A stretch of DNA of 57,655 bases from a virus (Duplodnaviria; Caudoviricetes): the IMG/VR virus record IMGVR_UViG_3300033144_001394, positions 1 through 57,655 of that record. One strand, given 5' to 3'. The notes under the pieces are model-generated. The model had not been told where the DNA came from. It saw only the letters and a list, made by a program, of their open reading frames with translations, and made no database searches. The position numbers and the translations under genes are program-made. Below are positions 3,996-44,782 of this stretch, in pieces. Numbering within the stretch: position 1 is the stretch's first letter; each line of letters begins with the position of its first letter.

Positions 3996-6572
3996 ATGGC
4001 AAGAGTAAGAATAGTAAGAAAGGGAAATACGATGCAAGTCGGAGGATCTGCTCATACAGGCATGCCCGGTATGGGTGATAAGTCTTTATCATATCCTATT
4101 TCAGACCCACTTGGTGGAATGCAAGAGGCGACCAGTGTTAATAAAACTCTCAAGCCAATAGCTCGACAAGGAGCTACATTAGAAGCTGAGAAAGGGGAGA
4201 GTGTTGTTACAGATCTTGCTAAGATTGGTATACCTCAGCACTTTAATATTGGGGGCAAACGTCATTATGATGGCGGTACGCCTCTTAATTTACCTAATGA
4301 TTCATTTATCTTCTCCAGAGATAAGACCATGAAGATTAAGGACGATATGATCTTAGAACAGTTTGGAAAGAAAACACGTAAAGGTAAGCGTTCTTTTACT
4401 CCGGCTGAGATAGCGAAACAGTATCAGAATAATAAGTATTTAAAAATACTTATGGATCCTGACTCAAGTAGAATGCAGAGAGATACGGCTGAGATGATGA
4501 TTGAGAATAACAATCTTAAGTTAGGTGCATTAGCTATGGTACAAGAATCACGAAAAGGTTTTCCAGATGGAATACCCGGTGTTGCTATGCCTTATATGGA
4601 ACGTCTAGGATTAACTCCTGAGCAGTTGGTTCCTCAACAAGAACCACAAGAGGGACAGCAAGGACCACCACAACAAGAACAACCTCCTATGGAAATGCCT
4701 CAGATGGCACAAGGTATGAAAGCTGGTGGTTCTACAGGTAAGACGCGTGTTCGTATTAAGAAGACCGGTGGTTCTATACCTTCATATCAAAAAGGTGGTG
4801 GATTTAGACATCCCATTGGACCAATGCCAGGAATAACTTGGGAACAATGGGATAACATGTCTCCACAAGAAAAAGAAAGAGCAAGTCCTACTGACAACCC
4901 TGTAGAAGTGAACGGAGAAATAGTTCCCTCTACTTCGAATAAAAGCACCAAGCATCAAAACATTCCAGATGATGCTGTTAAGTGGGACATGACTACTGAA
5001 GGATATGACGAAAGTCAGGTTCAGCCAGGTGACTATATCCTTAAGGAGGATGGTAAATGGTATAGGACTACAGGTTATACACAAAAGAACTATGGTTATG
5101 AGGATAGCAGACTAGGTGAACTGCAACCAGCTTACGGTCACCTACAGAATACTATTACTGGTAACGAAGATCTGCAGAATGCAATTTATATCAATTACCA
5201 AAAGCATATCCAGGACAGTAATCTTTCTAAAGAGAAGAAAGACCGCCTCCTTAAGATGCCGAAGGATCAAGTAATCAATACTTTCCTACAGGGTCAGAAA
5301 CAAGTATATGCTATCAGCAACTCTGGTGCACTCTATCAACACAATGAAGATGGAAGCATCAAGGAAGATGTAGATGGCAATCCAATCATGAAATCTGAGA
5401 AAGATCTTAAGGTTTGGGAGAAGCGCGATAGTCCTGAGTATTATAAGCGAATGAAAGAGCTTGGTTTTAGTGAAGATGAGTTATTCTCAGGTGAGATGAC
5501 AGCTGTATTCCAAGCAGCGTATCGCGGACTAGAGGATGCTAGTCTTGATGAGCAATTCACTGAGACACTTGGTAACTTTAATATTACTCCAGTGGGTCTT
5601 AAAGATTCACATGGAATGCATACATATGACGGTAAGGCTATATCTCCAGTAGATGAGATCTTCGGAAATACTACGGCAGGTCAAGCAGTTCTTCCAATAG
5701 ATCTTGATAAAGATCTTACAACAGAAGAAGTTGAGTGGACTCCAGATGGAGTAGTAGATACTCCTGAAGGATTAAAGGTTCCACCACAGGGTGCTCCAAA
5801 TGCAGACTTTTGGTTACAGGACGTAGTCAAGAACTGGGGAGCTTTTAGTGATAGGGCTCGTATTAGTAAGGAAGCACCTTGGCAAGGACAAGCTGCAGTT
5901 AAACTAGCGGATCCTACATTTTTTGATCCAACAAGAGAACTTGCAGCCAATGCTGAGCTAGCTAATATTGCTACTCAAGGAGCTGCCATGTTTGCAGGAC
6001 CTCAAGCATATAATGCTAGATCTTCTCAGATTCAAGGACAGGCTGCTCAGAATGCTGCTAATATTCTTTCTCAATATAATCAGAAGAATGTCGGTACAGC
6101 AAATCAATTTGAGATGGCTAATACTCAGATAATGAATCAAGCTGCACAACAACGTAGTCAATTAGCTACACAGCTTTGGGATAAGAATGCTATTCTTAAC
6201 CAGCAGTATAAGAATTCTAAGAACAAGGCTATCGAGAACCAACGCCAGTCTTATATTGACGCTCTTACTAATAGAGCGCAGACTCAGGCGCTTAACTCTT
6301 TATATCCACAGTATAATGTAGATCCTATGTCAGGAGGCTTCTTAGACTATGATGCAGAAGCAGGTCGTAGAAGAAAACTAGAAGCTACCCAAAGTCAGAA
6401 TAAGACCATAACAGATAGCTTTGCTCGAATTAAAAGAGAGAATGCTGGTATTGATGATGCTACGGCTTATAAGTTAGCTTCTAAAGAAGCAGGTATGCCA
6501 GATGATACACCCTATGGTGCAGAAGCAGCATACTATGGAAACTACTTGGGCAACATGGCAGGGCATGAATAA
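3996..6572 (+). CDS. crAss-like virion structural/cargo protein (858 aa)
   Basis: LEAEKGE...GGKRHYDGGTPLNLP...FIFS block resembles a segment recurrent in Bacteroidota phage virion proteins; Q/N/A-rich helical C-terminus. Confidence 0.65.
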   Translation: MARVRIVRKGNTMQVGGSAHTGMPGMGDKSLSYPISDPLGGMQEATSVNKTLKPIARQGATLEAEKGESVVTDLAKIGIPQHFNIGGKRHYDGGTPLNLPNDSFIFSRDKTMKIKDDMILEQFGKKTRKGKRSFTPAEIAKQYQNNKYLKILMDPDSSRMQRDTAEMMIENNNLKLGALAMVQESRKGFPDGIPGVAMPYMERLGLTPEQLVPQQEPQEGQQGPPQQEQPPMEMPQMAQGMKAGGSTGKTRVRIKKTGGSIPSYQKGGGFRHPIGPMPGITWEQWDNMSPQEKERASPTDNPVEVNGEIVPSTSNKSTKHQNIPDDAVKWDMTTEGYDESQVQPGDYILKEDGKWYRTTGYTQKNYGYEDSRLGELQPAYGHLQNTITGNEDLQNAIYINYQKHIQDSNLSKEKKDRLLKMPKDQVINTFLQGQKQVYAISNSGALYQHNEDGSIKEDVDGNPIMKSEKDLKVWEKRDSPEYYKRMKELGFSEDELFSGEMTAVFQAAYRGLEDASLDEQFTETLGNFNITPVGLKDSHGMHTYDGKAISPVDEIFGNTTAGQAVLPIDLDKDLTTEEVEWTPDGVVDTPEGLKVPPQGAPNADFWLQDVVKNWGAFSDRARISKEAPWQGQAAVKLADPTFFDPTRELAANAELANIATQGAAMFAGPQAYNARSSQIQGQAAQNAANILSQYNQKNVGTANQFEMANTQIMNQAAQQRSQLATQLWDKNAILNQQYKNSKNKAIENQRQSYIDALTNRAQTQALNSLYPQYNVDPMSGGFLDYDAEAGRRRKLEATQSQNKTITDSFARIKRENAGIDDATAYKLASKEAGMPDDTPYGAEAAYYGNYLGNMAGHE

Positions 6573-6629
6573 TAAACCTAAGAGGTTTGTTAAACTTATA
6601 TTATTTTTGAATTAAACTTATAAAGTAAC

Positions 6630-7271
6630 ATGGCAACTTATTTACCAGGTGAATCTGGAATATACCAAATAGTAAACTTAGTATCTCAAAAAAGATATAT
6701 AGGTCTTGCTTCAAATATGAAAACTCGTATGAACGGTCATCTATATGACCTTAGAAGAGGCATCCATGCAAATGCTTATTTACAGAAAGCTTGGAATAAG
6801 TATGGCTCTAAAGCTTTTACCTTTAAATGTTTAGAGAAATGCGCTGTGTCTTCTTTACATTTACGTGAGGATTATTGGGTTCGAGTATTGAAGGTTGATC
6901 AACGATACTATGGTTATAATATTAAACCAACTAATCCTGAAGGTTGTTCTCAACACTCTGAAGAAACTAAGTTTAAGATAAGTAGAGACCATAAGTTTAA
7001 AGGTATAAAACCTGGTATATTATGTCTTAAAAAGAGACAAGAATTAGGAGTTACCGAAAGACAAAGAATTGCTATGCGAGAATCGTTAAAGAAGGTTAAC
7101 TTTTCTAAAGTGCATAGAGAAAAACGAGGAAAGAAGGTTATTAATGTTAAGACTCAAGAAGTATATAGTTCTTTAGCAGAAGTTGCTGAATTACTAGATG
7201 TTCATAAAGGTAGTCTTTCACGTAAACTTTCAGGTAAACGTAATAATAATACACATTATAAATATTTATAG
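6630..7271 (+). mobile_element. Free-standing GIY-YIG homing endonuclease with NUMOD3-like and C-terminal HTH-like DNA-binding motifs
   Basis: GIYQIVNL...YIGLAS...R...H...LQKAWNKYG...E...GYNI; HSEETKFKIS; basic C-terminus. Confidence 0.93.
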
Positions 7272-7273
7272 TT

Positions 7274-10200
7274 ATGGCCACATATTTGCCCGGCGTCACA
7301 GATTATATACCGCAGATTCAACCATTCAAACCAGATTATAATTTTTACTCTGGTGCGCTTCAAATGAAGCAAGGTCAATATGATGCTTCTCATAAGCAGT
7401 TGAGTAACCTTTACGGATCTTTACTTAATGCTCCTATGTTGCGTGATCAAAACATTGAATCTCGTGATCAGTTCTTTAAAGCAATTAATAATGATATACA
7501 GAAGATATCCGGACTTGACCTCTCACTGCGAGAGAACGTTAGTGCAGCTTCCGACCTTTTTACTCAGATCTACGACAACGAAAATATCGTCAAGGACATG
7601 GTCTATACCAAGAACTACCAATCTGAGCTTACCAGAGCCGAAAGTTTCAGGAACTGTGTAGACATTGAGAAGTGTGGTGGGGCTTACTGGGAAGATGGTG
7701 TTAAGGCTTTAAACTATAAAGCAGATGAGTTTCGTAAGGCTTCTGATCAAGATGCATTAGGTATGCAGAACAGTAAATTTGCTTCATATCAAAATGTTAT
7801 GGAGAAGGCGGTTAAGCTTGCTAAAGATGCTGGACTTAACATTGAGATTGATCAGGTAAACGGCAGATACATTTACACAACTAAGAACGGTCCCAATCTT
7901 ATAAGACCACTTTCTGATTTATTTACAGGAGTATTTGCTAATGATCCTTCTATTCAGGAGTATTATAATGCTCAGGCTTATGTTCAACGTAAGGAGTGGA
8001 TCTTTGGAAACGCTAATCAATATGGTGGTGAAGCAGGTGCTGAACAGGCATATGCTGATCAGATGATCCAAGGCATGCAAGCTATGTTTGGTCAAATGGA
8101 GGAGGATATTACTTTTCAGAAAGATATGAATACTGGTCAGAAAAGTAATCTTGAAGATAGAATTACTAAGGAAGGTACTATTCCAAATAGTCCCCTTGCT
8201 AGACAGTATCAAGCACTTAATGAATATGAGCAACAGATTGATGCTACTGGAAAAGTCATAGAGAACACCAATGGTTATATTAAAAATGTACAAGATCCTG
8301 CTTTAAGAAGAGCAATGGGTGCTAACCTAGATAAGGTTATGGCCTCTTTCTTATTACAAGGGGATATTACAGGAGCTGCTGAAACACTTGCTTATAAGGA
8401 TTATTCTGTTAAAATGGAAGCTGATCCATATGCATTAGAAAACGTTAAGCAATCTAATAGATTAGCACTTGCTGAAAGGAAATTCCAATATGATATTGCT
8501 CTTGAAAAGTATAAGCTAGACCCAGAAGCTTGGGAGAAAAAACAGATGGAGATTGGTGATATTGATCAGAATATTCCAAATACGGTAGATGATGTAACCG
8601 GAGCAAGCGAAATTAATTTAGATGACGACGGTGCAGCTGTTGTTTATGAGGATATGATAAAAGAAGGTCGTAATGACTTTAGTAAGTCCGAGAGAGTGTT
8701 GATTAAAGATTATCTTGAACGGGTTAAAGAACAGTCTCGAGGTGAAGAATTTAAGGGTATCGCCTCTGAAGATTTAGTTGCCTTTGGTGAGGCTATGATT
8801 AATGAGATTAATACTGAGGAGAAGTATTCCACTTTTGAAGAGGGCGTTACAAGTACTATAAAAGGACAACGGGCTGAAGGAGGCTTGCGTCTTAAAGAAC
8901 AATGGGATAGTTTATCTAAAGCGGATAAAGTTAAAGCTATGCATACTAAAGATTTTGAGCAATACCTTACTGCTGATTATGGTTCAGGACTTAGTGGTAC
9001 AGCTATTGATAATATATTCGATAGTCAGATTCGACCTATTATACCTAAGAATGAAGATGAAAAAGTACAGAGGGAGTATCTTGGGGCTTGGAATACAGAT
9101 ACAGGTACTCTAAACAACCTTAGCATAATTGATCATAAGGAACAGGTTCTTGATGAGTTGAATAACTGGTTTATGTCAGAGAATGAAGATGTTCTTGGTA
9201 AGATGAAAGGGGATACTGGTTTCTTAGAATATAAACCCTATTTAGATCATTATTTTGATGAGAACTTTAAACCACGTAGTGCTCGAGAATTTGCACATAG
9301 TTATTTAGATGCTAATCCCGAACAAGACCCGGCTGATCCAAAGGTCCTTGAAAGATTAATGGAGGTATATTATGGTGATAGTTACGGAGCAATAAAAGAT
9401 AGTCCTAGTATATATACATGGATGGATTCTAGGGCGCGTGAAGGTCAAGGTGGGTTATCAAATAAGCTATTGGAAACAACCTTAAGTCTTTTGCCTAACC
9501 CTATGGCTAGGAGAACAAGAACAATTTCTGGGCTTATTTCAGAATTACCAGCAGATGAACAGGATGCAGCATGGGAAAAAGCAGAGAAAGAATATGGTAT
9601 TTCTAATCCTAATATGAATAAGTTTATCACACCCACAGGAGCTGGTTTAGATGTGGCATGGAGAAACGGTTTCTCAAAACATGCTACACCGGAAGGTGGA
9701 GCAATGTATCTAGGGCTTATGGGTAACGACAGCTATGCTGCAAGAGGAATAAACTACGCTAGAGTAGATCCCATAGCTATTAAGAGTGGAGCCACTATGA
9801 ATGTTATGAGTTTCTTTAGTGACGTTCTAGGAGCAAGTACCGGTGATATGCGACTTACTTTAGAAGGTCCTCAAGCTGAAATGGAAGATGTTGAGCATAA
9901 GGCAGACCTAATGCCTATATTTAATCAACTCTATCAGGACATGTTTAATATGGCTAGTCCTAAAGAAGGAAATCGACCTGTGTTAAACGTAACCTATCAA
10001 GATATTGCTGGAGGTACTCGTGACTGGACTGCTCTTAATATAAAATTCAATGAGCCTTATATGAAGGAATATTTAGGTAGTGATGCCAACAAAGGTATAT
10101 TTAGAGAGAAGGAGCAACTAACGGTTTTGCTCAGGGTACATCTAAAACTTCTCTTGAAGAAGATTTATATTGGACAGGTCAACATGAAATTAAAGGTTAT

Positions 10201-10312
10201 AATGATATATTTGATAATGTTAGGCTTATTCGGGATAAGGAGAATGGTGGATTCAAGCTTACAGGCAGAATGTATGATGGTCTTAATAAAGAAGGCAAAG
10301 TTAATTGGATAA
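7274..10312 (+). CDS. Large virion cargo/ejection protein; the true C-terminus is probably in the -1 frame ending at 10470
   Basis: 1012-aa ORF between structural genes. The last ~65 aa are atypical, while the -1 frame is open 10105-10470 with normal composition. Confidence 0.7.
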   Translation: MATYLPGVTDYIPQIQPFKPDYNFYSGALQMKQGQYDASHKQLSNLYGSLLNAPMLRDQNIESRDQFFKAINNDIQKISGLDLSLRENVSAASDLFTQIYDNENIVKDMVYTKNYQSELTRAESFRNCVDIEKCGGAYWEDGVKALNYKADEFRKASDQDALGMQNSKFASYQNVMEKAVKLAKDAGLNIEIDQVNGRYIYTTKNGPNLIRPLSDLFTGVFANDPSIQEYYNAQAYVQRKEWIFGNANQYGGEAGAEQAYADQMIQGMQAMFGQMEEDITFQKDMNTGQKSNLEDRITKEGTIPNSPLARQYQALNEYEQQIDATGKVIENTNGYIKNVQDPALRRAMGANLDKVMASFLLQGDITGAAETLAYKDYSVKMEADPYALENVKQSNRLALAERKFQYDIALEKYKLDPEAWEKKQMEIGDIDQNIPNTVDDVTGASEINLDDDGAAVVYEDMIKEGRNDFSKSERVLIKDYLERVKEQSRGEEFKGIASEDLVAFGEAMINEINTEEKYSTFEEGVTSTIKGQRAEGGLRLKEQWDSLSKADKVKAMHTKDFEQYLTADYGSGLSGTAIDNIFDSQIRPIIPKNEDEKVQREYLGAWNTDTGTLNNLSIIDHKEQVLDELNNWFMSENEDVLGKMKGDTGFLEYKPYLDHYFDENFKPRSAREFAHSYLDANPEQDPADPKVLERLMEVYYGDSYGAIKDSPSIYTWMDSRAREGQGGLSNKLLETTLSLLPNPMARRTRTISGLISELPADEQDAAWEKAEKEYGISNPNMNKFITPTGAGLDVAWRNGFSKHATPEGGAMYLGLMGNDSYAARGINYARVDPIAIKSGATMNVMSFFSDVLGASTGDMRLTLEGPQAEMEDVEHKADLMPIFNQLYQDMFNMASPKEGNRPVLNVTYQDIAGGTRDWTALNIKFNEPYMKEYLGSDANKGIFREKEQLTVLLRVHLKLLLKKIYIGQVNMKLKVIMIYLIMLGLFGIRRMVDSSLQAECMMVLIKKAKLIG

Positions 10313-10470
10313 CCCTTAATGAATACTCCCCTCCAGGAACAAGTCCAGACGTAATTAAGAACAGATTTCTTAATGAATTTGCACCTATTATTCAACCTGT
10401 TTATGATGATGAGATGCAATTCTATATGTCTAATCATCCTAATTATACCACCGATCCATCACAACTTTAA
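10105..10470 (+). CDS. Probable frameshifted C-terminal part of the 7274 gene (includes ORF 10270..10470)
   Basis: Open frame REGATNGFAQGTSKTSLEEDLYWTGQHEIKGYNDIFDNVRLIRDKENGGFKLTGR-MYDG...; ends 11 nt before the next ATG. Confidence 0.6.
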   Translation, partial: REGATNGFAQGTSKTSLEEDLYWTGQHEIKGYNDIFDNVRLIRDKENGGFKLTGRMYDGLNKEGKVNWITLNEYSPPGTSPDVIKNRFLNEFAPIIQPVYDDEMQFYMSNHPNYTTDPSQL

Positions 10471-42242: not shown

Positions 42243-43556
42243 CTATTTCGTAGCTATGTCTTGAATTTCCGTATCTCTAAGGATCTTCTCGAACTTCTTC
42301 TTAGCACCAGCATTAATCTTCTTTACTATATGATATCTAAGATCATCAGTAAAGATGCCATCTTCCTTAATCAGGTTAACTACTCGTTGAACCACCTCGG
42401 GTGGTATAGGATTCTTATCAGCATAAGCTATTGCGAAGTTTACAAGTCGCGAGCAAAGTACCATAGCTATGTCAGAGCGATAATCATTACCGGATCCAAC
42501 AGCTTCTTTCATATCTTCAAATACAGCTTTCTGATCTTCTTTAAGAAGGATCTCTTTAGGTGAGATCAGCCTATCTAACTTCTCCTTAATGAATGTGGTG
42601 AAGGTTACACCAGCTTCTGGTCCTATACATCCTTCAGCAATTTGATGGATGAGAGGTAGACTTTCTTCAAAGTCTTTTATTGAGCTAATTGAGTTAAAGA
42701 ACGTAGTTAAACTTCTAGGGTTTACTCTGTTATTCACTATCTCAGGGTTGAATAGTACGAAATTGATGCATCTACCATCTATCCCCTGAATCTCTGCCCA
42801 TTCTGCCCAACGCTCATGACTCCACTTTAGAACTGAGCTTATAAATCTCGTTCGTTGAGCTACATCAATTGAGTTAACCATGTATTCTCCATCATCTGGA
42901 TTGGCTGTAAGAAGGATTGTCCATCCTGGAGGAAGCTTCCAAGAGATATACTCTTGTCGATCAACCAATTCCATTACGGCTTGGATAAATCGAGGCTCAG
43001 CTCTGTTCCAGTCATCTAATAATAGGATCCCTCCTTTAGTCTTTCCTGCTATCCATTCTGGTGGACAGTAGCTCATTCGTTTCTCTCCGGTGAATCTATA
43101 ACCCTGACGAGCATAGTCTTCTGTAGCTACATCATCTACCCAAAGAGTTTCTGATGTTTGTGCTGCTGGTGTATTTCCTGCAGGTTTCATAACAATCTTA
43201 GCTACGCCATCAACTCCTATAACCTTTGTAGGAACCATCTTTTGTTGCTGTTGATTATCTTGTACTTTGTCTTTTTTACACATCTCGAACTGGCGTACGG
43301 GAAATCCTACTAGATCTCCAAGTTCTTCAATCTGCGCTAAGTTTACCTTCTCGATATTAATACCGAACTCCTTAGCCATCTGAATAGCTACACTCGTTTT
43401 ACCGAGCCCTGATTCTCCTATTACTTCAACAGCTATAGGATTCATTCCTTTGTCCTGAATAAACGCATTGTTTTTCATGATATGACGAAGGAAATCTTTC
43501 ATTTCATTGGTGTCCAACTGTACCTGATGATTTATTTCTTCTGTGTGTGATGCCAT
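42243..43556 (-). CDS. MoxR-like AAA+ ATPase
   Basis: Walker A GESGLGKT, GDLVGFP, Walker B LLLDDWNRA, TANP, RTRF, NPRS. Confidence 0.88.
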   Translation of the reverse strand: MASHTEEINHQVQLDTNEMKDFLRHIMKNNAFIQDKGMNPIAVEVIGESGLGKTSVAIQMAKEFGINIEKVNLAQIEELGDLVGFPVRQFEMCKKDKVQDNQQQQKMVPTKVIGVDGVAKIVMKPAGNTPAAQTSETLWVDDVATEDYARQGYRFTGEKRMSYCPPEWIAGKTKGGILLLDDWNRAEPRFIQAVMELVDRQEYISWKLPPGWTILLTANPDDGEYMVNSIDVAQRTRFISSVLKWSHERWAEWAEIQGIDGRCINFVLFNPEIVNNRVNPRSLTTFFNSISSIKDFEESLPLIHQIAEGCIGPEAGVTFTTFIKEKLDRLISPKEILLKEDQKAVFEDMKEAVGSGNDYRSDIAMVLCSRLVNFAIAYADKNPIPPEVVQRVVNLIKEDGIFTDDLRYHIVKKINAGAKKKFEKILRDTEIQDIATK

Positions 43557-44782
43557 TATAATTCTAGTTTAATTTTAGCCCCTGGTAGAGACTCGTTTAT
43601 ATCGGATACTCCTGAATGTACCCATAGTACATCCCCTCTTACATTATCTGGGGCAGGTGCTTCTCCGTCTGTGAAGTTGATGAAGCAGCTGTAATTCCGC
43701 AGGTGTTCATTATAAAAATTAATTCCCGGCTGAAAGTCTGTTCCGCCTCGTCCCGTGATTTCAAAATGTTCACGGTGGTTGAATCTTTTAACGCTTGAGA
43801 TAGCTGAGTCGTATTGCATGACTGTTATCTCACTACCTGTTTTCTGCATATGGTAGATCTCGTTAAGGAATTCTTTCAGTTCAGGCATACTTACTGAGCC
43901 TGATGTATCTATTCCTATAAGTAAATGCTTTTGTCGTTTGATTCGTAGTCCCGGATTACCTGGCAGTCTTTTGCTAAGCTTTCTTCGAGTCTTTTTAGTG
44001 TAAGTCTTGATTGACTTACCTGCGAAACGTCGGATGTATCCTTTCCAATCAAACTTTGCTGGTTCTATTGTATTAAGGCGCTCGATGATAGTAACCATTT
44101 CACCCGGGATAGTCCCTCTTGACTTGGTGACTTGGTCAGCAATCTCTCTTACTAGGTGCGCTGTATGAGCTTTAAGTAATTTAGCTGTAGCTTCATCTAC
44201 TTGATCACCGTCCCAATCATGTTGAGGTAATACAATAGTCTCTCCATTAACATTGGATGTTTCATTACCAGCAGCCGCATCTTGAAGTATTTGGTCTAGA
44301 GTAGGGGAGCTTCCATCTTCACGCGCTTTTAAAAGAGCTTTGTAATAATAGATGCTACCTGCTTTCTCATCCAGTTCTAATTCAGGATAGGTCGATAGGA
44401 GCTGTCCTCCTGGTGGTAACCAATCAGCATCAATATACTGATTGATCTCAAGGTCCATGGCTATATTCATAATCATTGCTTTCTCTCTATCAACTACTCC
44501 ACCTGTGGTATAGTAGTGATCATAGTCTGTTAGATGAAAGAATCCTATATGCATTAGCTCATGCTTGAGTAGACCTTTCGGATGATGTTCTCCTGGTAAC
44601 TCATCCCAAAACTTAGGATTCAACCGTAGCTGGTAGTTAAGATTTCTCAATCCTACACACGCTGTTGGTATCTGCTCATCCCACATCTTGTTCAAGTTCA
44701 TCAGAAAGAACCCATAGAAAGGCTCTTTTAGCATAAGATCCTTCGAGGCTTTAGCTAAACTTTCTGATCTAGTTCTTTTCAT
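43556..44782 (-). CDS. Metallopeptidase plus VWA-domain protein (DUF2201-like), MoxR partner
   Basis: HELMH, DLEIN; MIDAS DTSGS; GRGGTDF; FTDG. Confidence 0.88.
   Translation of the reverse strand: MKRTRSESLAKASKDLMLKEPFYGFFLMNLNKMWDEQIPTACVGLRNLNYQLRLNPKFWDELPGEHHPKGLLKHELMHIGFFHLTDYDHYYTTGGVVDREKAMIMNIAMDLEINQYIDADWLPPGGQLLSTYPELELDEKAGSIYYYKALLKAREDGSSPTLDQILQDAAAGNETSNVNGETIVLPQHDWDGDQVDEATAKLLKAHTAHLVREIADQVTKSRGTIPGEMVTIIERLNTIEPAKFDWKGYIRRFAGKSIKTYTKKTRRKLSKRLPGNPGLRIKRQKHLLIGIDTSGSVSMPELKEFLNEIYHMQKTGSEITVMQYDSAISSVKRFNHREHFEITGRGGTDFQPGINFYNEHLRNYSCFINFTDGEAPAPDNVRGDVLWVHSGVSDINESLPGAKIKLEL

Follow-up and report, generated by a model that had tools for sequence, protein, structure and literature searches.

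A putative GIY-YIG homing endonuclease cassette that borrows the start of a conserved phage gene

In the window, i.e., the whole stretch of 57,655 nucleotides of phage DNA analysed here, a free-standing I-TevI-like GIY-YIG homing endonuclease cassette appears to have settled in a conserved phage gene, about five codons from its 5' end, a reading to which we give a probability of roughly 0.8. The parts of the cassette would be the endonuclease body with its stop codon, a −4 to +3 nt junction, and some 5–15 codons that give the target gene a replacement start. Left upstream would be the resident spacer element, the ATG and the first 5–7 codons, and these would now open the endonuclease ORF. The target gene would be read from the element-borne ATG just past the endonuclease stop, so that no splicing would be needed and the target protein would stay unchanged. 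A selfish endonuclease could in this way enter a coding sequence without an intron or intein, leaving the host protein as it was, and solve its own expression problem by a start borrowed from the host gene. The features are as follows.

3996–6572, plus strand: 858-aa gene, conserved left neighbour and presumed left homology arm, with homologues upstream of the target in relatives.
6573–6629, plus strand: intergenic spacer with a conserved element at 6591–6609 (TAAACTTATATTATTTTTG), 20 nt before the endonuclease ATG.
6630–7271, plus strand: free-standing GIY-YIG homing endonuclease gene, 213 aa, stop TAG at 7269–7271, with Pfam, PHROG and PDB matches.
6630–6650, plus strand: resident start (stub), ATG and six codons (MATYLPG), now endonuclease codons 1–7; the stub proper is the first 15 nt.
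6645–7288, plus strand: 644-nt segment missing from a near-isogenic empty-site contig, i.e., endonuclease codons 6 onwards with the stop, TT, and nt 1–15 of the spare start.
6651–6926, plus strand: I-TevI-like GIY-YIG catalytic domain (residues 8–99), aligning to PDB entries 1MK0 and 1LN0.
7026–7268, plus strand: C-terminal region (residues 133–213), presumed DNA-binding module, from the family alignment.
7274–7294, plus strand: MATYLPG spare start that the element brings for the target gene, with the spelling ATGGCCACATATTTGCCCGGC.
7274–10312, plus strand: target gene, 1012 aa, a conserved phage protein with a predicted all-alpha N-domain.

Two adjacent ORFs on the plus strand, 6630–7271 (213 aa) and 7274–10312 (1012 aa), both start with MATYLPG, and their N-termini read MATYLPGESGIYQ and MATYLPGVTDY, respectively. 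The TAG at 7269–7271 is followed by TT and then by the target ATG at 7274, which places the two genes 2 nt apart. The 21-nt starts at 6630–6650 and 7274–7294 were identical at 16 positions, and all five mismatches were synonymous third positions, in five of the six codons after the ATG. Seven residues common to the starts of two neighbouring ORFs cannot be a matter of chance. The duplicated start with its synonymous differences, already pointed out in the initial annotation, was thus confirmed, and the same layout was present at 22 further distinct loci among the matches listed. The stub is written in codons that are common in this genome; the spare-start codons GCC, TTG, CCC and GGC each account for 7–10% of their own codon family. 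The N-terminal pattern M[ASP][TSIL]Y was found in 114 of 120 listed target homologues, and MATY[LI] in 92. The targets of P0002–P0004 show 80%, 62% and 55% identity. Because those 114 homologues share such a start, the N-terminus is taken as native to the target gene, and MATY[LI]xG is, judging from the protein alignment, the native start of the family.

The proposed identity of the first ORF as a GIY-YIG endonuclease was borne out. It matched GIY-YIG PF01541 in Pfam with E 8e-7 (29.7 bits, cut-off 22.6), the homing-endonuclease families of PHROG with E 2e-21, of which phrog_314 covers residues 9–212, and, with residues 8–99, the I-TevI domain in residues 2–92 of 1MK0/1LN0 (E 2e-11). The Arg and Glu sites mutated in 1MK0/1LN0 are Arg and Glu in the window's endonuclease, and both catalytic positions were invariant in the alignment of 36 family members. 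Like I-TevI, the enzyme would be built of two parts, an N-terminal nuclease and a C-terminal DNA-binding region, the latter being presumed in the window. I-TevI is intron-encoded and starts with MKSGIYQ, whereas the window's endonuclease has seven target-derived residues in place of Met1, and no sequence match was detected between the C-terminal halves of the two proteins. GIY-YIG was the sole family that Pfam called on the window's endonuclease, with no DNA-binding family, and PF07460 was recorded in a few homologues only. Residues 133–213 form a conserved module, which is fused to an HNH-AP2 nuclease in L006 and has been swapped between otherwise close endonucleases. The protein ends in a conserved ..GKRxNxTxxKYL, and the AT-rich codons of this C-terminus lie directly 5' of the target ATG. 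CNNNG is the cleavage motif of I-TevI; in the endonuclease-free alleles it had no conserved position by eye, hence no cut site is proposed.

Homologues of the endonuclease fell into 110 clusters at 90% identity, on contigs of up to 142 kb, and the window's protein was 46–57% identical to every other member among the matches listed. Many of the homologues are called ‘group I intron endonuclease’ in the source annotations. A target-like N-terminal peptide was carried by 79 of 92 homologues of 200–220 aa and was absent from 13 of the 92 clusters. When viral contigs were searched with P0146, a capture-less endonuclease, for close relatives, distant nucleases only were returned; capture-less forms were later seen among the metagenome loci at the same insertion spot (L148, L150).

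The borrowed peptide might be functional for the endonuclease, as a short tag for virion loading or partner binding by which the enzyme is packaged or localised with the target. The first 16 residues of the target are strongly conserved yet predicted to be disordered, as for a docking peptide, and in the 79 endonucleases the amino acids of the peptide are retained despite synonymous changes. In addition, the Atlas lead for the target was ‘crAss cargo protein 2’ with a score of 0.91. However, only five to seven residues are in common, the peptide is absent from close endonuclease relatives at this spot (L148, L150) and from the 13 clusters, and recipient homology together with the translation start would explain its conservation equally well. 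The cargo assignment was not confirmed by the other searches, since the target profile gave nothing below E 0.2 against PDB sequences and the AlphaFold model of residues 1–280 (pLDDT 82) had no Foldseek match in PDB at E ≤ 0.001. We consider a tag function very unlikely. No Pfam or PHROG family was assigned to the target gene, its giant neighbours or the 858-aa upstream gene, and the GenBank phage collection gave neither a DNA match nor a protein match.

Relatives were obtained by scanning viral contigs with an alignment of the target; a query with the single target protein had found none. The viral-contig loci comprise the best 80 of 555 matches, and the metagenome loci the best 80 of 521. 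Exact duplicates (L010, L012, L111, L113, L115, L119, L125, L134, L147, L152, L155, L156 and L160) were left out of the counts, as was L117, the contig of which begins downstream of the gene start; L132, a near-copy of L128, was left out too. The near-copies L016/L022, L023/L025, L110/L123 and L112/L131 were kept among the free loci. Among the matches listed, 38 distinct endonuclease-free IMG/VR loci had a single target start directly after the spacer, as had been anticipated for relatives lacking the enzyme, and the endonuclease occupied the same spot in 25 distinct loci, 23 of them with the borrowed start.

Homologues of the 858-aa gene were located upstream of the target in 27 of 28 related loci, and the exception, L002, had too little upstream DNA. 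The spacer element TAAACTTATATTATTTTTG occurs once in the 57.6-kb window. Allowing up to three mismatches, it was found in 20 of the 38 endonuclease-free loci (among the matches listed), at most 90 nt upstream of the target ATG; exact or near-exact copies in the window's clade lay 17–20 nt before that ATG, and the element is missing upstream of the window's own target ATG at 7274. The element is presumably the target gene's own expression signal, now used by the endonuclease. A scan of 6400–7400 for sigma-70 promoters and terminators gave no more than shuffled sequence. The endonuclease would be translated from the target's own initiation region; translation of the target would rely on re-initiation or on the AT-rich end of the endonuclease ORF.

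Exactly 644 nt are skipped in two public contigs that are otherwise almost identical to the window, and a single start remains in each; its codons 2–5 are spelled as in the endonuclease-fused copy. In the contig from run X2 (record 10), 6096–6644 is joined straight to 7289–8078 with an ambiguity of 2 nt; it had no differences from the window in 6420–6644 and 8 in the 790 nt downstream, with flanks 99–100% identical. The X4 contig shows the 644-nt skip with 1 difference in 157 nt to the left and 13 in 135 nt to the right. The letters of the stub matched the empty sites exactly at codons 1–5 (X2) or 1–7 (X4). Both junctions of the form with the endonuclease are spanned by contigs from X1. The two contigs with an empty site are of limited length and coverage (1327 nt, depth 7.6, and 292 nt, depth 2.7). 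Since no run shared by the two copies of the repeat is longer than 5 nt, an assembler working with 31-letter words would not be expected to create 644-nt skips. Comparison of the window with the empty sites and with a second cassette placed the insertion junction after codon 5 (+15/+16), not after codon 7. The claim that the first seven codons were captured stood as regards the capture itself but not its extent, and the insertion inside the 5' end of the target gene is supported by the native N-terminus of the family and by the empty sites.

The outer limits of the cassette were seen between L034 and L153, in which the endonuclease and the first ~20–45 nt of the target are ~97–100% identical, and both flanks are unrelated or ~55% identical. 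Counted per 20 nt, there were 17–20 matches in the endonuclease and 4–12 in the upstream flank, and along the target the matches numbered 20, 17, 16 and then about 8–13; the stubs differed at +6, +9 and +15. The spare start therefore moves along with the element, and the stub is part of the resident gene. The idea of a recoded replacement N-terminus could accordingly be kept in part: it is supplied by the element, but it is better read as a foreign, element-borne allele than as recoded. Between L017 and L031 the endonuclease was 82% and 74% identical and the target 34%. On the target tree (quick IQ-TREE, short rows L022 and L123 left out), the patchy distribution of the endonuclease called for at least six gains or losses, four of which were forced by supported branches. 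In these comparisons the element was more alike between genomes than its flanks are, which points to horizontal spread. In mixed infections the enzyme would cut alleles that have no insert, close to the start of the gene, and the cassette would be copied in during repair, with a left homology arm made up of the upstream gene, spacer and initial ~15 nt and with the target body as the right arm.

A gene of this kind could also have ceased to move here and be retained, possibly domesticated, e.g., as a DNA-binding protein that regulates the gene downstream or as a weapon against rival phages, with the common N-terminus as a relic. I-TevI is also a repressor, at an operator resembling its homing site, as stated in the available part of PMC2988022, and with 46–57% identity to the other members listed no recent transfer of this copy is documented. 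Such a fate is nevertheless unlikely, as near-identical genomes with and without the endonuclease coexist in public runs, the catalytic positions are intact and the endonuclease family as a whole moves between phages.

Restoration of the gene by splicing, with the endonuclease inside a group I intron or being an intein, is hardly conceivable. The ‘group I intron endonuclease’ labels of the homologues point that way, and removing 644 nt, 6651–7294, would likewise restore the gene. However, no Rfam family at E ≤ 1 and no ribozyme core were found in 6000–8000, the ORF fills the insert and leaves 2 nt of non-coding DNA between the ORFs, the endonuclease ends in the stop codon at 7269–7271, and no Hint domain was called by Pfam. 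Moreover, with a complete second start in frame the gene has no need of splicing, and splicing would leave unexplained why this start matches the family N-terminus at the protein level. The element was on these grounds rightly described at the outset as intron-less and intein-less. For annotation, where a short duplicate of a gene start flanks a ‘group I intron endonuclease’ call, it would be a real feature, not an error.

Compared with the X2 empty site, the spare start has other bases at +6, +9 and +15; since CCC and GGC are found in that empty site as well, only three of the five differences between stub and spare start are element-specific. These three differences in the first 15 nt compare with 8 in the next 790 (binomial P 4e-4). 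Codon 2 stood out among the matches listed: it was GCA in 1 of 25 carriers versus 29 of 38 free loci (Fisher 9e-9) and AGT in 10 of 25 versus none of 38, statistics that ignore shared descent, and since many loci share a cassette type, the independent codon-2 events may number only four to six. L031 was the one listed carrier with GCA in the spare start, and all ten AGT cases carry an endonuclease tail of the ..N[LF][IK]YL type. Stub and spare start had different second codons in 23 of 23 listed loci, as against 38% of random pairs of free loci. Over the first 15 nt the two were alike at 8–13 positions and random free-allele pairs at 12.0 on average; being no less alike than such pairs, they give no sign of general recoding. 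In the carriers L006, L007 and L130, whose HNH-AP2 endonucleases leave no repeat, codon 2 is GCT, GCC and GCT, respectively. L130, with its HNH-AP2 endonuclease at the same spot, differed from the near-identical empty L135 at 11 of the first 60 nt and at none of the next 120.

The scarcity of GCA at codon 2 of the spare start fits self-immunity, and we lean slightly towards the view that the altered spelling, chiefly at this codon, would shield the carrier genome from its own enzyme. A possible but rather doubtful alternative accepts the layout and the mobility and denies the spelling a protective role. The spare start would then be a donor allele carried along in a co-conversion tract, or would be kept different so that the repeats cannot recombine and delete the endonuclease, and self-protection would come solely from the split recognition site. 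As cassette and spare start pass together between diverged phages, foreign origin alone would explain the synonymous differences, and the overall likeness of stub and spare start to random allele pairs agrees with this. In the available part of PMC3630166, the replacement ends of fungal mORFs also differ from the native ones, with 63.5% DNA identity in Glomus atp6, where the native end differs only synonymously from the closest relative. As for repeat avoidance, the longest run shared by stub and spare start was at most 11 nt, and 3–9 nt in 22 of 23 loci, which would hinder deletion. Neither version predicts, however, that the change is concentrated at codon 2 (different in all 23 loci, with GCA in 1 of 25 versus 29 of 38), nor that codon 2 also departs behind the repeat-less HNH-AP2 endonucleases of L006, L007 and L130.

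Set against the closest known systems, the start capture proposed here can be regarded, by analogy, as the mirror image of the mobile endonuclease ORFs (mORFs) of fungal mitochondria, which form gene hybrids in Glomus atp6, atp9, cox2 and nad3 and in Allomyces macrogynus atp6, as the available part of PMC3630166 describes them. In both, an endonuclease ORF without an intron invades one end of a coding gene and brings its own, foreign version of the end that it displaces, in phase with the body of the gene; the native end stays as a duplicate, and the two copies differ far more in DNA than in protein. The mORFs spread by cleaving ORF-less alleles, and the phage cassette would do likewise. They replace the 3' (C-terminal) end, whereas the phage cassette replaces the 5' end; their native remnant is described in that part of the source as unexpressed, whereas in the phage it would be reused as the endonuclease's own start; and their duplicated piece measures 50–280 nt as against 15–45 nt (PMC3630166). 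With the N-terminal end replaced, and in a phage contig, the cassette would work like an mORF without being a member of the described mORF set.

The free-standing GIY-YIG and HNH endonucleases of T4-like phages, Seg and Mob, similarly adjoin conserved genes and vary in presence, their ORFs are tightly packed or overlapping, suggesting coupled translation, and flanking markers are co-converted in intronless homing (PMC2988022, available part). In that part of the source, the T4 genes are intergenic or overlap the 3' end of the ORF before them, and start capture with a spare start is not described. The intron ORFs of PMC8393795 also gain host translation signals, being read in frame from the start of the host gene, but in the part available they belong to self-splicing introns, and RNA splicing restores the host gene; the phage case has no intron and a duplicated start. 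The inserts of PMC7315562 share with the cassette a mobile insert with a diverged host-gene duplicate and the exchange of gene fragments between lineages. They are, however, mitochondrial, are predicted introns and carry long duplicates (72–81% amino-acid similarity over whole exons), and the available part of that source does not link them to start capture by an endonuclease.

Start capture was also found, among the loci fetched, in two other unrelated target genes (L053 and L094/L095), and the mode would for this reason be recurrent and not a one-off. At even odds, it would represent a general, so far undescribed lifestyle of GIY-YIG homing endonucleases inside phage genes, with insertion a few codons in, takeover of the promoter, ATG and opening codons of the host gene, a replacement start that resists cleavage and owes its immunity mainly to codon 2, and a site contested by an unrelated HNH-AP2 enzyme with exchange of DNA-binding modules. 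A full-text literature search gave no published case of 5' start capture in phages; supplements and most subscription journals were outside its scope, and a case may exist. The family offers natural empty sites, near-isogenic pairs of carrier and free genomes, a second endonuclease that competes for the site, and a chimeric enzyme, which makes target recognition, self-immunity and module exchange directly testable. Cassettes of this kind would also put foreign sequence in place of the opening codons of conserved phage genes, a point of importance in phylogeny and recombination mapping.

Two further observations concern the target gene. Endonuclease-free alleles beginning with MST or MSS exist, in L129 and as loose ends in X2 and X4, and these may be resistant empty sites or former carriers. 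The target ORF of the window departs from the homologous frame near 10096–10105, and the homologous C-terminus runs in another frame to 10467; this copy of the gene may be defective or mis-assembled.

The endonuclease gene lies between an intergenic spacer (6573-6629), which follows an upstream ORF of 858 aa (3996-6572, plus strand), and the 1012-aa gene here called the target. The features concerned are:

6591-6609, conserved spacer element TAAACTTATATTATTTTTG, 20 nt before the endonuclease ATG, occurring once in the 57.6-kb window
6630-7271, plus strand, endonuclease ORF of 213 aa, beginning MATYLPGESGIYQIVN, with the stop TAG at 7269-7271
from 7274, plus strand, target ORF of 1012 aa, beginning MATYLPGVTDYIPQ

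The 21-nt starts of the two ORFs were alike at 16 of 21 bases, all five mismatches being synonymous third positions, and the target ATG followed the endonuclease stop after a gap of two bases. The duplicated start around the endonuclease, with its synonymous spelling and closely following second ATG, is thus confirmed as first described. The endonuclease ORF scored above the cut-off for Pfam PF01541 (GIY-YIG), its residues 9-212 matched PHROG homing-endonuclease families (E 2e-21), and residues 8-99 aligned with the I-TevI catalytic domain (PDB 1MK0, 1LN0; E 2e-11). Residue 2 of I-TevI stood opposite endonuclease residue 8, so the seven shared residues appear as an add-on replacing Met1. The catalytic residues are intact: Arg and Glu are present where 1MK0 and 1LN0 carry mutations, and both positions were invariant across 36 members of the endonuclease family. 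No Rfam family was found in window 6000-8000 at E <= 1, which together with only 2 nt of non-coding sequence shows that there is no intron, and an intein was ruled out by the stop codon and the absence of a Hint domain; an insertion of neither kind was also the view of the initial annotation.

Database relatives of the target protein number 675 at E <= 0.001. Among the 120 of these that were listed, 114 start with M[ASP][TSIL]Y and 92 with MATY[LI], which indicates that the peptide is native to the target family and was acquired by the endonuclease, as had been proposed. A target-like peptide opens 79 of 92 endonuclease homologues of 200-220 aa, the other 13 having short starts of their own, and the junction between peptide and endonuclease differs among homologues (MATYLQ|S.., MATYLQG|K.., MATYI|HLPE..). 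Six target homologues (P0049, P0063, P0073, P0077, P0097 and P0110) are called from an internal Met (residue ~55 or ~11), perhaps because the start of the gene was mis-called or is interrupted, possibly by further insertions.

Related IMG/VR loci were collected by an alignment-based scan (28) and with a sequence pattern describing a conserved downstream peptide (26 more), and counted after removal of exact duplicates. Thirty-eight loci had no endonuclease ahead of the target, nine had the GIY-YIG endonuclease (window counted), and in three the place was taken by an HNH-AP2 endonuclease unrelated to it. In the 38 free loci a single start stands right after the spacer, which is what the initial annotation expected of such relatives. 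The element TAAAC.TATA..ATTTTTG was found 17-20 nt ahead of the target ATG in the clade of the window (loci L002-L005, L015, L024, L028 and others), and is conserved among relatives whose proteins are just 30-60% identical. In the window a short inverted repeat, AAACCT..AGGTTT, lies ahead of the element, which was looked for before the target copy of the start and was absent there. The element may be a promoter or another signal.

Near-isogenic empty sites were found when contigs of four public sequencing runs with pieces of this phage were placed on window 5600-8400. Run X1 has the carrier form, with contigs covering 6537-6702 (0 differences) and 6708-7581 (1 difference). In run X2 a 1327-nt contig joins 6644 directly to 7289, with 0 differences from the window in 6420-6644 and 8 in the 790 nt past the joint. 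A 292-nt contig of run X4 joins 6650 directly to 7295; its 157 nt left of the joint contain 1 difference from the window, and its 135 nt right of the joint contain 13. Each of the two contigs skips 644 nt, the exact spacing of the two starts. Since the longest runs common to the two repeat copies of the window are <= 5 nt, an artefact of an assembler using 31-letter words would not be a plausible source of the skips. In both empty alleles ATGGCAACTTATTTA is continued, by CCCGGC in X2 and by CCAGGT in X4, so that codons 2-5 are spelled like the endonuclease-fused copy and unlike the target copy of the window. Against the X2 allele the latter has mismatches at +6, +9 and +15, followed by the 8 in 790 nt (binomial P 4e-4). 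Its codons GCC, TTG, CCC and GGC each make up 7-10% of their codon family in this genome, and a random synonymous spelling would be equally rare or rarer with P 0.003; CCC and GGC are present in the X2 empty site as well. There were also loose ends at 6608 (X2) and 6610 (X4), where related contigs lack the endonuclease and run from the spacer into starts spelled ATGAGTACTTAT and ATGTCTACATAT (MSTY); they may represent empty sites that resist cutting, or alleles that once carried the element.

A metagenome scan gave 16 further distinct carrier loci. Among 25 distinct carriers the capture was present in 23 and absent in two (L148, L150), and in every carrier the distance from endonuclease stop to target ATG was -4 to +3 nt. 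The extent of the moved unit could be read from loci L034 and L153, whose upstream flanks are unrelated (4-12 of 20 nt) while their endonucleases have 17-20 matches per 20 nt throughout. Their stubs, i.e., the resident gene starts now serving as the first endonuclease codons, mismatch at +6, +9 and +15, and their targets match at 20, 17 and 16 of 20 over the first 60 nt, later at about 8-13 of 20. This profile delimits a cassette that begins near codon 6 of the endonuclease, takes in its stop and runs on through roughly a dozen target codons. The five codons ahead of the cassette are resident, consistent with the junction between window and X2. Likewise, L017 compared with L141 and L144 had the first 24 nt 100% identical and a gene body of ~71%. 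The first target codons thus match along with the endonuclease, bearing out the proposal that the element supplies the replacement start.

The spelling of this element-borne spare start (7274-7294 in the window) departs from that of the stub in a way that, judged from sequence comparison, appears specific and not general. Of the 38 free loci, 29 have GCA as target codon 2, against 1 of the 25 carriers (Fisher 9e-9, with no correction for shared descent); AGT stands there in 10 of 25 carriers and in none of the 38 free loci. Codon 2 of stub and spare start was unlike in 23 of 23 loci, compared with 38% for random free pairs. At three loci behind HNH-AP2 endonucleases, with no repeat to protect, codon 2 is likewise not GCA. 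Taken over all of the first 15 nt, the likeness of stub and spare start was no lower than that of random pairs. The pattern makes a fair case for positions +4 to +6 being important for cutting, in which case the spare start may be protective. The spelling might instead be a neutral carry-over of the donor allele, or it might serve to avoid repeat-mediated deletion.

The distribution of the endonuclease is patchy and horizontal. A quick maximum-likelihood tree was built from 48 target proteins, trimmed of their first 7 residues and with 2 short rows omitted; the GIY-YIG endonuclease had to be gained or lost at least 6 times on it, and well-supported branches forced four of these changes. Endonucleases can resemble each other far more than their hosts do: between L017 and L031 identity is 82% for the nuclease half, 74% for the C-terminal half and 34% for the targets. 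The C-terminal half can also be exchanged between close hosts, as in L017 and L033, where the targets (82%) and nuclease halves (81%) are close and the C-terminal halves just 39% identical. The HNH-AP2 endonucleases at the target site have their own start and no capture:

L006:3223-3999, chimera of HNH-AP2 endonuclease and C-terminal module
L007, HNH-AP2 endonuclease, 165-aa ORF ending 3 nt before 4001
L130, HNH-AP2 endonuclease, 163-aa ORF ending 1 nt before the target ATG

In the chimera, an HNH-AP2 nuclease with homologues in L007 and L130 is fused to a C-terminal module from the GIY-YIG family. With both families at the same spot, this points to two endonuclease families competing for a single site and swapping their putative DNA-binding modules. 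The spacer is the same in L135 (empty), L130 (HNH-AP2) and L128 (GIY-YIG), and the targets of L130 and L135 have 11 differences in the first 60 nt and 0 in the next 120.

The testable parts of the start-capture interpretation are supported. In a mixed infection the enzyme would cut the uninterrupted allele near the gene start and repair would copy the cassette from the carrier genome, with the upstream gene, spacer and ~15 nt as left arm and the gene body as right arm. The endonuclease would be translated from the target's own initiation region, and the target from the ATG past the endonuclease stop, by re-initiation or from the AT-rich stretch that closes the endonuclease gene. The arrangement may have originated in a one-sided illegitimate repair event that joined the resident gene start to a spacer endonuclease with its own start; endonucleases of that kind persist in L148, L150 and the HNH-AP2 genes.

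The nearest described system is a mobile endonuclease ORF of fungal mitochondria, where the C-terminal end of atp6, atp9, cox2 or nad3 is replaced by an element-borne foreign copy and the native end remains as a duplicate (PMC3630166). In the phage the arrangement is mirrored: the 5' end is affected, and the native remnant serves as the endonuclease start. Endonuclease ORFs in self-splicing introns are described as reading in frame from the host gene's start, the host gene then being restored by RNA splicing (PMC8393795). Inserts bearing N-terminal duplicates of the host gene are described for Tremella mitochondria (PMC7315562), and for T4 free-standing endonucleases are described as intergenic or overlapping the upstream ORF (PMC2988022). 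Searches of full-text articles, covering few subscription journals and no supplements, found no start capture in a phage. Two more captures were found among 80 loci. Another GIY-YIG endonuclease (L053:2386-3072) begins (V)NINDLKAAGDFALNFGC, and its stop is overlapped by a gene that starts with MNINDLKPANDFASQFGC and continues into a P-loop (GPAGVGKT); this is a second, unrelated start capture, of ~17 codons of a P-loop protein. At L094:2971-4017 and L095:618-1634 a GIY-YIG protein of 338-348 aa begins MRSLRPPIFVTGTARSGTS and the downstream gene, for a protein with an RSGTS motif, begins MSDTTGSLRPPIFVVGCARSGTS, a third capture, of ~17 codons. One base differs in the first 24 nt of this repeat, so the duplication looks recent.

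The importance of the target gene is argued only by its wide conservation. Its residues 1-280 are predicted with confidence as an all-alpha domain (pLDDT 82), for which no match was found among solved folds, and the first 16 residues are highly conserved and disordered in the predicted model. Near 10096-10105, where there is an AGAGAGA run, the target ORF departs from the frame of its homologues: the relatives P0002 and P0003 align with 7274-10105 in one frame and 10063/10096-10467 in another, and ~13 codons of P0002 are missing around the change (10040-10470). Such a change of frame may be genuine, may be programmed, or may stem from an assembly error. The target belongs to a block of very large ORFs (858, 1012, 1910, 3584 and 2586 aa), none with a family match; the last three, giant ORFs in succession at 10482-34733, matched neither Pfam nor PHROG families. 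Taken with the target's Atlas lead, a candidate match to crAss cargo protein 2, they presumably resemble the large virion-protein block of crAss-like phages. In the adjoining replication module, a 408-aa protein (43556-44782, minus strand) matched phrog_1314, annotated as HNH endonuclease, with E 2e-56.
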